A stretch of 64,000 nucleotides of DNA from an uncultured Chthonomonadaceae bacterium (GTDB taxonomy: Bacteria; Armatimonadota; Chthonomonadetes; Chthonomonadales; Chthonomonadaceae), in contig CAWFQB010000003.1 of the NCBI GenBank assembly GCA_963817895.1, forward strand, positions 128,001-192,000, read 5' to 3'. Each line of letters opens with the position of its first letter. The first letter of the stretch is position 1. The position numbers and the translations under genes were made by a program. This document shows positions 12,110-16,276 of this stretch, piece after piece. Below the pieces are notes generated by a model. It was not told the origin of the DNA and did no database searches. It saw only the letters and a program-made list of their open reading frames with translations.

Positions 12110-12204
12110 AGCACGGTTTGGGTACGGTTAGAAAACTCCGTTTGTATTTTCTGCCCCGCAGTATTTTTGACTGCGGGGCAGAATTGTTTGCAGGAAAGAA
12201 CGCT

Positions 12205-13173
12205 ATGCCTGTTCGCGCCTATTTATACGATGCTGAAGCGAAAGACCGCGAAGTGGCGCTGGAAGCTCCGCTTGTCGCCGGACTGACGGACGCGCAACTG
12301 TTATGGGTGGATGTCAACGGCGCGGAAGAGTTGGAACTGCGCTCTCTTGCCTCCCAATTTAATTTGAAACGGGAATCTGTGTATAATCTGCTGCACCCGG
12401 ATCGCCGCCCCCGTCTTGACAACTACGGCGATTATTTACAGTTCAACATGGATGCGGTGGAAGAAACAGACGGTAAATATCGGGTCGTAGAACTCACGTT
12501 CGTCGTCGGGCCCAACTTCGTGATTACGGTTCACTCCACGCCGGTCGCTTTTTTGAATAGTTTCGATCAGCGCGTGAAGGGCGACACGCAGATGGGGCAG
12601 TTGGATGCGAGCGCGTTTCTGGCCGCGCTGCTCGACTGGCACATCACCAGTTATTTTCGCATTGTGGAGCAGTTGGAGTCGCGGGTAGACCGTCTGGACA
12701 CGCTGACGCTGCGTTCGCGGCATCGGCGGGACGTGCTGACGGAACTGGCGAAACTGCGGCAGCGCGTGGCGTTTATTCGCCGGACGCTGACGCCCCACCG
12801 GGAAGTGTACGCCGCGCTGTCGCGCCCGGATTTTCAGGTGATCTCTAATTCCGACTCCGCCGCGCATTATGAACTGCTCAATGACCGTTTGCAGCGCGCC
12901 ATCGAAGCCGTTGAAAACGCGCGGGAACTGCTGGTCGGCTCCTTCGATATGTTCACCACGCAAACCGCCCTGCGTACCAATGAGGCCATGAAAACCCTGA
13001 CTATCGCCTCCTTTATCTGGTTTCCCGCCAGCGTAATTGTCGCCATTGCCGCGATGCTGCTGCGAACGCCCGTCAATCCGGTAGGAACGCCGGGTTTCTG
13101 GCTGATGATCGCGTCCATTGTGTTGATCGGCATCGGAACGATTGTCATGGCAAAATGGAGGAAGTGGGTGTAG
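12205..13173 (+). CDS. CorA-family divalent cation transporter
   Basis: Long helical cytoplasmic region, NEAMKTLT, two C-terminal transmembrane segments; the canonical GMN is not evident. Confidence 0.75.
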   Translation: MPVRAYLYDAEAKDREVALEAPLVAGLTDAQLLWVDVNGAEELELRSLASQFNLKRESVYNLLHPDRRPRLDNYGDYLQFNMDAVEETDGKYRVVELTFVVGPNFVITVHSTPVAFLNSFDQRVKGDTQMGQLDASAFLAALLDWHITSYFRIVEQLESRVDRLDTLTLRSRHRRDVLTELAKLRQRVAFIRRTLTPHREVYAALSRPDFQVISNSDSAAHYELLNDRLQRAIEAVENARELLVGSFDMFTTQTALRTNEAMKTLTIASFIWFPASVIVAIAAMLLRTPVNPVGTPGFWLMIASIVLIGIGTIVMAKWRKWV

Positions 13174-13322: not shown

Positions 13323-13830
13323 GTGGCAGACGATACGCCGGTGTCGAAACCGGAAGCCGAATTTGTTTTGCAGAAGGTGCAGCCGGCATTGTTAGGATTG
13401 ATGGATGGTTCGGTTTCCACGCTCGCGCCCCTGTTTGCCGCCGCCGGACTGACCCATAAACCCATGCAGGCGTTTTATGTGGGACTGGCGGCTTCGGTTG
13501 GGGCGGGCATCAGCATGGGACTGGCCGAAGCGCTTTCCGACGACGGAACGGTAACGGGCAGGGGCAAGCCCCATTCTGCGCGGCGTGATTACCGGACTGG
13601 CGACTACATTGGGCGGGATGCTGCATACCCTGCCGTTTCTATTGGGCGATCTGAATACCGCTCTGAAATTCGCGTATGGCGTGGTCGTGGCGGAACTGCT
13701 CGGCATCGCGTTCATCCGCTGGCGCTTCATGAAAAGCCCGCTCGGACAAACCGTAGCGCAGGTGATTGTCGGCGGCGGCATCGTCTTCCTCATCGGGATA
13801 TGGCTGGGCAAGTTAGGCGCGGGAGGATAG
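13323..13830 (+). CDS. VIT1/CCC1-family membrane protein; frameshift near 13570
   Basis: [26 protein letters not shown] and GGMLHTLPF motifs. Confidence 0.8.
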
Positions 13831-13939
13831 CGGCAAAAACAAACCGGCCTGTGTCTTCCGTTCTTGGTGGAAGAGACAGGCCGGGGTTGGGGAACGGCAT
13901 TGCTTGCGGGTCATGGGGACACCGCAACGCGCCGGAGGG

Positions 13940-14455
13940 CTAACCCTCCTCATCGCCGTTCATCTGTATGTAGACATCGCGGATACGCCGGACGTGATAC
14001 GCGACATTGGCGGACGTGCAGCCGACAATCGCGCCCACTTCGCGCCAGGTGTAGCCCTCCATCAGCGCGCGCAGGATTCGCTGCTGCGTAATGGTCAGGC
14101 GGGCAAACAACGCGCCTAAATCCACATTACTCCGCGCGTCCAGGTACGATGCCATACTGGGGGGAACATCGTCGAGCGCGACGTGCTGCCGCCGCCGCTG
14201 CCTGCGGATTGTATCCAAAATGCGCCAGCGCGCCCGTTTCAGCAGATGCTGTTCCGGCGTGCCGACCGAGTGATCCAAACGCGGCAGGATTTCCAGCACA
14301 GCAAGCCACGCTTCCTGACGCAGATCGTCCTCATCCACGCCGCAGCGACGCCCGAAGTACGACGCCATTTTCTCCACACGAGTTTGTATCAATTCCATCA
14401 ATCGGGCATGATCGGGCGCGTCGCCCCGCTCTGCCCGTTCCAATAACGGTTGCAT
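13940..14455 (-). CDS. small sigma-70 family sigma factor (SigH/ComX-like or ECF-like), no adjacent anti-sigma
   Basis: [11 protein letters not shown] (region 2), LT..QQRIL...GYTWREVG...VAYHVRRIR (region 4 HTH), GAGGAG ribosome-binding site. Confidence 0.8.
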
Positions 14456-14625
14456 CACACGCTTCTCCTCAAAAGAAGAATTCTCAAAAGAATCCTCAAG
14501 AATTCTCGAAAGAACTTTCAAACCACAAGAAGATACATCCACCGATGCGGCTCACAGACTTTTGCCGGCAACGAATCGGGAACCTGCCTCTGGCAAGGTC
14601 AACCCGTTCCCATTCACCTGTCCAC

Positions 14626-14663
14626 AAAAAAGCCGCCCCTGTGGTTTATCCACCGGGCGGCTC
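14626..14663 (-). terminator. intrinsic terminator
   Basis: GAGCCGCCC...GGGCGGC followed by TTTTTT on the minus strand. Confidence 0.7.
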
Positions 14664-15212
14664 GCGTTCAGGAGACGTTGGCGGACACGCGCAAGTATTC
14701 GGAACGCGCAGCAAATTGCTGCGCCCCGGATCGCGCGGTCCCTGTCTGCAAGTCTTCTCGTAATTCGTGAGAAGAAGCGGTCGCGTTGAGGCGTTCTCAA
14801 CGCGCTGACGAACGACACGAAGGTCGCGGCATCAAGCGCGGGAGAACTGTCCTCGCGGTGGACAAGGCCGAACCAAAACATTGATCGGCGCCCGGCGCGT
14901 ATTCGCCCCGATGCGCGCTCCAATCGGCGCTATGGCCGAAATGTGGGTTGTTCGCAACACTTTCCACCTCCGTAAAGAATTTTCCAGAGAAATCTTCCAC
15001 TCATGGCTTGTGTGCGGCTGCGAACTGGCGAACGGAATATTCGCCAATACAGCCCGGAGGGGGAGCGACAAAACAGAAATGCCAGGCAGCCTGCCGAATT
15101 GCAGGCGCGGATGCGTTTTGCGAGTCATTTCCATTCCTTGTTCTCCCGAACTCCTCTGCCGAATGTTTCGTTTCTAAAATGATTTCGAAGAATAACCCGG
15201 CAACTTGCACAC
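14626..15212 (-). ncRNA. candidate large structured non-coding RNA (about 590 nt), family not recognised
   Basis: At least 10 local hairpins plus nested long-range helices; bracketed by a promoter-like site and a terminator on the minus strand; no convincing ORF. Confidence 0.5.
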
Positions 15213-15219
15213 GATGTAT

Positions 15220-15248
15220 AGTATACGCCTTTTATGCGCGGCTGACCA
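15220..15248 (-). promoter_or_regulatory. putative sigma70 promoter for the candidate ncRNA
   Basis: TGGTCA-N17-TATACT. Confidence 0.45.
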
Positions 15249-15589
15249 GAGGCTGACAGCCAATTTTCAGTCGCAAGCGCAAAAATTTGTACTACGCCCG
15301 CTTTATCGGCGGCAGGCTTTGCCCTGCTAAAGACGCTTCAAAGAATTTTTGATAAAATTTTGTTCTGATGCCTTATCTGCTTCACCCGGCGTCAGGAGAA
15401 CTGAGGAGATACAAAGAGAAAGCTAAAAACGGCGTGTAGGAGTTTTGTAGGAGTGGCCGGGATATACTGCCCACGGGATGAATTCGTCACAATTTACGAA
15501 TGAGCGGCAACATCTTTTCAGTTATACTCTGCCCTGCTCTCCCGGCTCTTTATGTAGTAATGACATGTTTGACAAAGGAGACGTTTATT

Positions 15590-16276
15590 ATGTGGATAGG
15601 CAAACTGGTTTGCGCTGCGCTGCTGCCTCTGTGCGGTATTGCCGCTTGCGCTCTTTCGGCGTCATCGGCTTCGGCGCAACAGACCTTGAATTTTACGGTG
15701 GACGGTCAGGCGCAACCCTGGCAGTTCGTCAGTGGCGGGCTGAATACCGGCTTTCAGTTTGGCATCAACGATGGGATTACGCCGACCGTTGTGAGCGCCT
15801 CAGATGGCTATGACTTCACGCCGGGTGGTTCCTTTACTGTCACCTACGTTTCCGGCCTGACCAGCGCGTTTATTGGTTTAGCGCCATCGTTGGATGGTAT
15901 CGGGGATACGGGCTACGATTCCAGCGGCTTTGGCGGCAGCAGTGGCAACGGTTTTCCCAGCAAGTATGTAGACCCGGCTTCGTATCCGGTCTATTTGAAC
16001 GCGCTCGTGGGCACGTTCGCCGACAACTCGGGGGCGATTGTGGGTACGCCGTTCTTTCTTGGGAATGGCCCTGCCTCTGAAATTGTTCCTGTGGGAGCCA
16101 CCCGGCTGCAGTTGGGAATCAATGATGACGTTTTTTCGGACAATCTGGGTTCTCTCACCGTCAGCGTGTTCGGCCCAACCCCTGCCCTCGTTCCCGAACC
16201 CGGCAGTATCGCGCTCCTTGTCGGCATGAGCCTGACCGGAGCCGCCTTTCTCCGCCGCCGTAAACAGTCCCGCTAA
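15590..16276 (+). CDS. PEP-CTERM sorting-domain protein
   Basis: Signal peptide; C-terminal VPEPGS, transmembrane segment and RRRK. Confidence 0.9.
   Translation: MWIGKLVCAALLPLCGIAACALSASSASAQQTLNFTVDGQAQPWQFVSGGLNTGFQFGINDGITPTVVSASDGYDFTPGGSFTVTYVSGLTSAFIGLAPSLDGIGDTGYDSSGFGGSSGNGFPSKYVDPASYPVYLNALVGTFADNSGAIVGTPFFLGNGPASEIVPVGATRLQLGINDDVFSDNLGSLTVSVFGPTPALVPEPGSIALLVGMSLTGAAFLRRRKQSR

Follow-up and report, generated by a model that had tools for sequence, protein, structure and literature searches.

Within the window, the whole 64,000-nt stretch of DNA from an uncultured Chthonomonadaceae bacterium analyzed here, the minus-strand sequence from 15331 or 15212 to 14456 is probably the cis-acting 5′ leader of the gene that follows it. 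This gene encodes an extracytoplasmic function (ECF)-type sigma factor of 171 aa (13940-14455, minus strand; ATG at 14455, stop at 13940). We propose that the leader works as an attenuator coupled to a short upstream open reading frame (uORF), and that it combines transcription termination with masking of the sigma ribosome-binding site (RBS). Its conserved parts include two mutually exclusive helices, an intrinsic terminator and a covarying antiterminator helix termed P1, and a uORF of conserved position. It is very likely that these helices make up a cis-regulatory terminator/antiterminator switch, and plausible that the uORF is the sensor of this switch.

Terminator and antiterminator helix P1

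A sequence-only reading of this DNA had placed a GC-rich stem followed by T6 at 14663-14626, and this intrinsic terminator is real: it consists of a 34-nt GC-rich hairpin plus T6 (14626-14663, minus strand), with a folding energy of −23.9 kcal/mol, and the sigma gene starts 170 nt farther downstream. The hairpin was missed by a simple scanner because its stem has an internal loop; terminator-like hairpins were found by scanner in 58 of 78 distinct upstream regions. The CGGTGGA core of the terminator arm is nearly invariant in alignments A2 and A4. The 5′ arm of the hairpin (14655-14647, minus strand; CGGTGGATA) is at the same time the 3′ strand of P1, and it pairs with a 5′ strand situated within the uORF (14864-14856, that is, 14856-14864 on the minus strand; TGTCCACCG). 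In the window the P1 duplex has an energy of −17.5 kcal/mol including three flanking pairs, and P1 and the terminator are mutually exclusive.

P1 covaries across the family. Among 22 compact leaders aligned with MAFFT, 87.3% of cells in the helix are paired and 7 of 10 pairs show two-sided changes. The covariation score was reached by 0 of 500 shuffles, a figure that, like those of the other shuffle and permutation tests reported here, is inflated by the kinship of the sequences; sliding the partner by 1-3 columns reduced the paired fraction to 32-52%. When RNAalifold was given the same 22-leader alignment without a structure, P1 was the sole consensus helix. A larger set of 41 leaders, composed of the compact leaders, metagenome relatives, and the three sequences of the window's genus, afforded 90.8% of cells paired and two-sided changes in 7 of 9 pairs, with 0 of 500 shuffles reaching any of five measures and slid controls at 33-55%. 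One pair in this set occurs as GC (24), CG (8), AU (5), and GU (4), and different genera carry TCCACC/GGTGGA, TTCACC/GGTGAA, TCCGCC/GGCGGA, or a CTGTCT-type strand with an AGACAG-type partner. An alignment-free comparison of the terminator arm with the leader and with shuffles by RNAduplex was discarded as too noisy in GC-rich sequence; only some leaders gave p ≤0.05.

At the DNA level, the stretch resembles only that of G001, a genome of the same genus, and there only in the 3′ half (74% over 151 nt, 84% over 43 nt). Such matches occur in 2 of 41 genomes, the window's own genome (G000) counted, in which the stretch is single-copy; nhmmer adds a weak match to locus L005. Because DNA homology ends at the genus, the comparison was anchored on orthologues of the sigma factor, which are present in 36 of 42 genomes and 19 of 23 genera of the Chthonomonadaceae, a family of soil bacteria, one per genome. 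Despite little sequence identity among their upstream regions, most of the loci inspected share one architecture: an A/T tract with TTTAGCA-N16-CGATA, a near-perfect Shine-Dalgarno (SD) sequence and short ORF ∼100 nt later, a CCACC-type segment near the end of this ORF, hairpins and a pyrimidine tract, the GGTGG(A) terminator arm, and the sigma RBS region GAGGAGAAGC. In several divergent genera, the uORF and hairpin are kept and the CCACC/GGTGG pair is absent. The local hairpins of the 3′ half proposed from the sequence alone (14848-14864, 14782-14804, 14753-14775, and 14683-14741) are kept in G001 and in L108, the nearest relative, which derives from a metagenome.

Compact versions of the leader measure only ∼300 nt in several genera. 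The leader of the window's genus is expanded, with the SD located 516 nt before the sigma start (∼260 nt elsewhere) and the terminator arm ∼200 nt before it (∼60 nt elsewhere). This genus has ∼140 nt of extra sequence between the terminator and the sigma start, which contains a second CGGTGGA arm (14538-14544) without a matching 3′ arm and, at ∼14472-14525 on the minus strand, three imperfect GAGAATTCTT-like repeats resembling the RBS region. The sequence of the insert suggests that the segment with the terminator and RBS was duplicated here and then decayed.

A covariance model, R1, was built from 33 leaders, all three sequences of the window's genus being left out. In the 64-kb window it yields one match, full length, at 14623-14867 on the minus strand (25.2 bits, E = 5.4e-5), and this is also its sole match in the 7.5-Mb genome. 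Searches over 68 genomes of the order returned matches in 22, all of them Chthonomonadaceae: besides the window's genome, 21 of 41 members of the family are matched, as against 0 of 24 and 0 of 2 in sister families. R1 also finds the untrained G001 (E = 1.5e-6) and G044, and there is one match per genome except in G011, which has two. All matches that were compared with the sigma coordinates, both G011 copies among them, end no more than a few dozen bases ahead of the orthologue. By these comparative criteria, the leader represents a genuine family of cis-regulatory RNAs that is conserved and has no entry in Rfam 15. The suggestion, made from the sequence alone, of a giant attenuator leader gating the sigma gene is borne out to the extent that the terminator and covarying antiterminator are conserved directly upstream of the orthologue and the covariance model matches only there. 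The genome G011 (79% complete, 6% contamination) carries two sigma copies, on contigs C508 and C756, each with a leader match (E ∼1e-25); either the copies are paralogues or the bin combines two strains.

Searches against known RNA families gave no match: Rfam 15, with its T-box, group II intron, 6S, tmRNA, RNase P, and riboswitch models, returned 0 at gathering score in the window, and no known family had been recognized by eye in the sequence-only reading. At a lax threshold (E ≤10), the interval 14300-15600 gave seven matches, all with E ≥1.4 and far under gathering, which are noise; they comprise eukaryotic snoRNA, miRNA, and lncRNA models and a 14-bit xanthine match on the opposite strand. 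A likeness to group II introns, which combine domain V and a 5′ GUGYG in a six-domain fold and often encode a reverse transcriptase, was also suggested at that stage and found no support, as no Rfam intron model matches and the ORFs of the stretch have no Pfam family; the last hairpin, which had been likened to intron domain V, is the conserved terminator followed by its T-run.

The sequence-only reading had also considered a large free-standing RNA partnering the sigma factor, for which we found no support. According to this alternative, the stretch would give rise to a ∼590-nt structured RNA with its own promoter and an end at 14626, and this RNA would have a trans-acting role, such as binding to the sigma factor or to RNA polymerase. 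The stretch does lie between a promoter-like site and a strong terminator, and it folds far better than its shuffles (z = −6.1), as had been claimed: the 587-nt stretch reaches −251.5 kcal/mol as compared with −213.0 kcal/mol (sd 6.3; z = −6.11), beating 100 of 100 shuffles. Terminated leaders can accumulate, and metatranscriptome contigs from one run extend over 14729-14966 and 14950-15154 (6 and 17 differences) with none over the sigma coding region. These contigs, which reveal neither strand, ends, nor level, may derive from DNA, and are uninformative where they give no cover, provide a weak hint of leader expression. Sampled words of the locus were carried by 20 public runs, each with a share ≤0.15, and contigs from four were used. 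However, the 5′ 240 nt of the stretch are not conserved even within the genus, and the helices there are not kept. The conserved part is explained in cis by an alternative to the terminator, a complement of the downstream RBS, and a uORF, and the element is single-copy, always directly upstream of the sigma gene and on the same strand, and as short as ∼300 nt in its compact versions. A trans-acting RNA is therefore very unlikely.

The lineage-specific 5′ part of the leader (14976-15212, minus strand) holds the long-range partners that had been proposed earlier. This part (15212-14976) is common only to the nearest relative, L108, and has no counterpart in G001. The proposed pairing of 15148-15140 with 14847-14839 has a basis in this genome only (−16.9 kcal/mol, p ∼0.07 relative to shuffles) and is not conserved, with p of 0.75 in G001 and, in L108, a 3′ strand altered at several positions opposite an unchanged 5′ strand. 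Likewise, the pairing of 15060-15055 with 14972-14967, which if formed would hide the SD of the uORF, is undercut by the absence from G001 of a counterpart to the region of its 5′ partner, and 15212-15203, the proposed partner of 14753-14744, falls in the non-conserved 5′ part. The long-range helices of the 5′ half were rejected as conserved structure, given that they are not kept among G001 and L108.

The upstream ORF and the sigma ribosome-binding site

The uORF consists of 42 codons plus TGA and occupies 14832-14960 on the minus strand (GTG at 14960, TGA at 14834-14832). Its presence, length class, and end point are conserved. The SD core, GGAGG at 14967-14971 (minus strand), lies 6 nt before the GTG, and is recovered as an invariant GG.GG in 22 of 22 rows of alignment A2 and as GGAGG in 41 of 41 rows of alignment A4. 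An SD-led ORF of at least 15 codons is found at 39 of 43 loci and in 39 of 41 aligned leaders. The earlier statement that the stretch has no convincing coding sequence consequently needs amendment in one respect, namely this SD-led short ORF (14960-14832), whose presence is conserved family-wide. The uORF forms the 3′ end of a 100-codon ORF (14832-15134) that had been singled out as a candidate for protein-level conservation; the peptide is not conserved, and the 57 upstream codons have neither a Pfam family nor a counterpart in G001.

All 39 rows have a uORF that reads through the P1 5′ strand; the other two frames do so in 5 and 21 of the 39, and the start-codon rule (ORF of at least 15 codons) favors frame 0. 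The stop codon lies 12-31 nt beyond the P1 strand in 36 of 39 rows. Across genera the P1 strand is read in all three frames, giving Cys-Pro-Pro, Leu-Ser-Thr, or Ile-His, and because genera use different frames there, its nucleotides are evidently conserved for pairing and not for the peptide. Within a genus, the number of codons varies little: all 8 rows of one genus have 24, and the window's genus has 42, 42, and 39, an in-frame difference. The peptides range overall from 24 to 54 residues. In our reading, this pattern reflects selection for an ORF whose translation proceeds to a set end point, and not for its product.

Could the ORF at 14960-14832 instead encode a functional small protein, such as a mini anti-sigma factor or sigma partner, with the RNA features secondary? 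Its strong SD and conserved presence upstream of the sigma gene fit this possibility, as does the recurrence within genera of motifs such as C-P-P-R/K-G. The recurring residues, however, are encoded by the P1 strand, which other genera read in other frames. The peptides lack codon-position bias, are random-like in composition and rich in rare codons, have no Pfam match, and vary from 24 to 54 residues in length. We consider this the least credible of the explanations, and a functional uORF peptide was rejected because genera differ in the frame they use and codon bias is lacking.

Relative to background, the uORF peptides are enriched in Ile (1.76-fold), Arg (1.68-fold), Cys (1.99-fold), and Pro (1.5-fold), and depleted in Ala (0.68-fold). 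Much of the Cys and Pro excess is contributed by the codons of the P1 strand. With the window's genome alone as background, the uORFs show a raised content of rare codons. Neither composition nor codons provided a convincing candidate for a sensed amino acid.

The second output of the proposed switch concerns the sigma RBS. The ribosome-binding region (TGAGGAGAAGCG; 14460-14471, minus strand) is conserved in alignments A2 and A4, and a pyrimidine tract at 14768-14779 (minus strand) constitutes its 12-bp complement, or anti-SD; the tract is also the 5′ arm of the hairpin at 14775-14753. The unconstrained minimum free energy (MFE) fold of 14975-14450 (−242.1 kcal/mol) contains both the terminator and, base for base, the pairing of 14779-14768 with 14471-14460, and this masking helix encloses the terminator and a long hairpin, P3. 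In a set of 38 distinct leaders, pairing of a tract with its own RBS was stronger than pairing with the RBS of another leader (−15.9 as compared with −12.7 kcal/mol; 5000 permutations, p = 2e-4), and in several genera positions flanking the anti-SD/RBS helix vary in concert. The masking helix and the terminator can be nested, whereas with P1 the masking helix would form a pseudoknot; hence an OFF fold (terminator and masked RBS) and an ON fold (P1) form coherent alternatives. Formation of P1 would in this model free the sigma RBS.

As regards the direction of control and the physiological signal, we infer the following scheme. In the OFF state, the hairpin at 14663-14626 would stop transcription, and in any read-through RNA the tract at 14779-14768 would mask the sigma RBS at 14471-14460. 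In the ON state, 14864-14856 would pair with 14655-14647 to form P1 and so prevent the terminator, and because P1 crosses the masking helix as a pseudoknot, RBS masking would be disfavored too. The most likely input is ribosome traffic on the uORF (14960-14832), since the 5′ strand of P1 lies inside this strongly initiated ORF. In the simplest form of the mechanism, ribosomes covering or passing 14864-14856 would block P1 and lead to termination, whereas stalling upstream or poor initiation would free the P1 strand. A local hairpin that hides the P1 strand occurs in only 9 of 33 rows, which suggests that the untranslated default may be read-through, with ribosome traffic favoring termination; an ‘anti-antiterminator’ hairpin was removed from the model on the same count.

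Several points weigh against a uORF-coupled switch of this kind, in addition to the kinship of the sequences, the start-codon bias, and the ambiguity of the metatranscriptome contigs noted above. The geometry is not classic, in that the uORF stop lies 12-31 nt past the P1 strand and another 135-210 nt must be transcribed before the partner strand appears, by which time the terminating ribosome may already be gone. With P1 forced, the leader of the window's genome folds at −213.2 kcal/mol, a loss of 29 kcal/mol in stability, which means that the ON state requires kinetic help; in this forced fold the RBS is paired instead with a nearby tract (14537-14526) that belongs to the lineage-specific insert. 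The P1-hiding hairpin is not general (mean z −0.12 over the 33 rows). We infer translation of the uORF from the SD and geometry only: between G000 and G001, substitutions at the three codon positions number 10, 11, and 14, so that third-position bias is barely present; peptide composition is like that of random GC-rich sequence, with Arg, Ile, Cys, and Pro up and Asp and Glu down; and the uORF peptides contain no single-amino-acid runs. Finally, R1 finds no element in 20 of the 41 other family genomes, some of which have a visible uORF and hairpin; the unmatched genera are too diverged for R1, and uORF and hairpin can still be seen there by eye.

A further explanation holds that the leader is a riboswitch-like or protein-binding RNA, in which P1 closes a domain of two to three hairpins and a ligand or protein stabilizes P1 and prevents termination, the uORF being accessory or incidental. 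The layout fits that of ON-type transcriptional riboswitches, with the 3′ strand of the closing helix shared with the terminator. Constrained folds of 20 of 20 leaders put hairpins inside P1, and short tracts between the hairpins are conserved (the pyrimidine tract, AGGG before P3, and CGYCUC after P3). P3 itself (14683-14741, minus strand), a long hairpin with an inner hairpin that is present in MFE folds between the anti-SD tract and the terminator, shows two-sided changes in 7 of 8 pairs of its family helix, and the uORF peptide is not conserved. Yet only 66% of the P3 cells are paired, in an imperfect alignment, and the interior of the domain aligns poorly and varies in length from 149 to 235 nt, a spread of >70 nt. 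For the best conserved of the single-stranded tracts, complementarity to the sigma RBS already provides an explanation, no Rfam aptamer matches, and the SD and uORF end point are among the best-kept features, which would be unexpected for an incidental ORF. We regard a ligand- or protein-gated P1 as rather unlikely, and retain the uORF-coupled attenuator as the preferred reading.

Promoter-like sites, the sigma gene, and its surroundings

The leader may begin farther upstream than the sequence-only reading had it. A promoter-like motif, TTTAGCA-N16-CGATA, preceded by an A/T-rich tract, is located at 15304-15331 (minus strand) and is conserved in the family, a relaxed form preceding the sigma gene at 36 of 43 loci. 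In the window's genome, the strict motif TTTAGC[AG]-N16-CGA[TC]A has 10 matches at a spacing of 16, as compared with 0, 0, 2, 1, and 3 at spacings of 14, 15, 17, 18, and 20. From these features we take the motif to be an ECF-type promoter, possibly autoregulated, and the transcript may start there, at 15331-15304.

The site proposed earlier, TGGTCA-N17-TATACT at 15248-15220 (15220-15248, minus strand), is indeed present; this sigma-70-like sequence (9 of 12 matches) is the sole promoter-like match in 13500-16000, for a chance expectation of 1.4. Its −10 box and flank (GGCGTATACT) are kept in G001 and L108 and its −35 box is not; in both relatives a GGAA(A)C-like box stands in the place of the latter. 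This second promoter-like site could therefore also be of alternative-sigma type.

A relaxed form of the upstream motif, TT[TA]A[GA]C[AG]-N16-CGA[TC]A[AG], has 13 matches genome-wide, of which the sigma leader is one. Four others (C4:19792, C4:534801, C4:36171, and C6:205721) lie 7-82 nt before genes for GNAT acetyltransferases (Pfam Acetyltransf_3, E 1e-25 to 1e-33), and the motif also precedes the G001 orthologue. A scan of 22 GNAT loci, two further loci being excluded, found the motif at 3, all from the window's genus, and at none of the GNAT homologues of other genera. A family-wide GNAT regulon was accordingly dropped, as the link is confined to the window's genus, where these genes may form a genus-level regulon of the ECF sigma factor.

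Another locus of the same genome, L194 (G000:C2:55750-58000), has a promoter-like motif followed by an SD-led 16-codon ORF and a hairpin with a T-run. The start of the product of the downstream gene resembles that of a citramalate or isopropylmalate synthase, a tentative assignment; its reading frame seems to be broken into pieces.

The sigma protein scores above the cut-off of TIGR02937, the NCBIfam model of the ECF superfamily (44.7 bits; cut-off 42.9), and matches Pfam Sigma70_r2 (E = 4e-9); Sigma70_r4_2 falls under its cut-off (22.8 bits; cut-off 25.7). ECF-type factors are characterized by having regions 2 and 4 only. For this protein, ‘SigH-like’ is imprecise and ECF-type sigma-70 the better description. 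In the G001 orthologue (L002/L006), an N-terminal insertion of ∼60 residues rich in Thr, Asn, Glu, and Gln sits between the conserved first residues and region 2, and L108 likewise has extra sequence there.

The designation ‘orphan’ is fair as far as the neighborhood is concerned. Because both flanking genes are on the plus strand, there is no co-transcribed anti-sigma gene at the locus, the search being restricted to this neighborhood and not extended elsewhere in the genome. The upstream, divergent neighbor (15500-16276, plus strand) encodes a secreted-looking PEP-CTERM protein whose PEP-CTERM tail (E = 0.0017) is under the cut-off. Downstream and convergent are VIT1-like ORFs (13323-13943, plus strand) with two matches to the VIT1 family, both under the Pfam cut-off; profile positions 3-55 fall in one ORF and 139-214 in another, in different frames, which suggests a frameshifted gene or an assembly error. 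A gene for a CorA magnesium transporter (12118-13173, plus strand) follows farther downstream.

Comparison with known systems

Leader-peptide attenuators, such as those of the trp, his, and ilv amino-acid operons, are ribosome-dependent; pheL and ilvBNC attenuators are also described in the literature. The sigma leader resembles them in having a short, well-initiated (SD-led) leader ORF, an intrinsic terminator before the regulated gene, and a covarying alternative helix that excludes the terminator by using its 5′ arm and whose other strand is overlapped by the ORF. It differs in that a sigma factor is regulated and not a biosynthetic operon, and in that the uORF has no run of a regulatory codon. 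The ORF stop is downstream of the antiterminator strand, whereas classically it is upstream; the P1 strands are 135-210 nt apart with hairpins between them; and a layer of RBS masking is added.

In ON-type transcriptional riboswitches, the 3′ strand of the closing helix P1 is at the same time part of the terminator. The sigma leader has the same covarying long-range closing helix around hairpins, with the terminator 5′ arm as its 3′ strand, but it offers no definable conserved ligand pocket and no Rfam family, and the 5′ strand of its P1 lies inside a conserved, translated-looking ORF. T-box leaders (RF00230) are similarly long and structured and decide between terminator and antiterminator, and the GGUGG arm is superficially T-box-like. 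There is, however, no Rfam match to this family even at E ≤10, the downstream gene belongs neither to the aminoacyl-tRNA synthetases nor to the amino-acid genes, and the partner of GGUGG is within the leader itself and not a tRNA end.

A full-text literature search, with subscription journals outside its coverage, returned no uORF/antiterminator leader on an ECF sigma gene and no Chthonomonas RNA element; leader control of an ECF sigma factor seems to be undescribed. ECF sigma factors are normally described as controlled by anti-sigma proteins, fused domains, or phosphorylation. Were completion of the sigma mRNA and its translation both governed by a conserved RNA leader, these proteins would be subject to another principle of control, and this in Armatimonadota, a phylum whose regulation has hardly been explored by experiment. 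In several genera the element is compact, and its exclusive helices with natural compensatory variants make it directly testable; a covariance model is ready for an RNA family that Rfam 15 lacks.

Among leader-peptide attenuators, the sigma leader is in its proposed function most like the mycobacterial whiB7 leader, in which, according to a preprint, ribosomes that stall in a variable uORF are believed to bring about antitermination into the regulator gene (bioRxiv 10.1101/2023.06.02.543512). In both cases a leader with a uORF and a terminator controls a global transcription regulator, and the whiB7 uORF also varies strongly in sequence between species (bioRxiv 10.1101/2023.06.02.543512). The two share no sequence or structural homology. 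The regulator is a WhiB-type protein there and an ECF-type sigma factor here, the whiB7 uORF is Ala-enriched whereas the sigma uORFs are poor in Ala (0.68-fold) and richer in Ile, Arg, Cys, and Pro, and RBS masking is added in the sigma leader. The whiB7 regulator is thought to answer translation stress (bioRxiv 10.1101/2023.06.02.543512), and by analogy we conjecture a similar response for the sigma leader. In its fullest and quite tentative form, the proposal is of an ECF sigma factor without an adjacent anti-sigma, placed under a dual RNA switch that would read ribosome traffic on a rare-codon-rich uORF, serving as a family-wide sensor of translation stress and driving its own promoter and, in the window's genus, the GNAT set. 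Should this prove true, the sigma factor would be a translation-stress sensor that works like the WhiB7 circuit and is built from unrelated parts.

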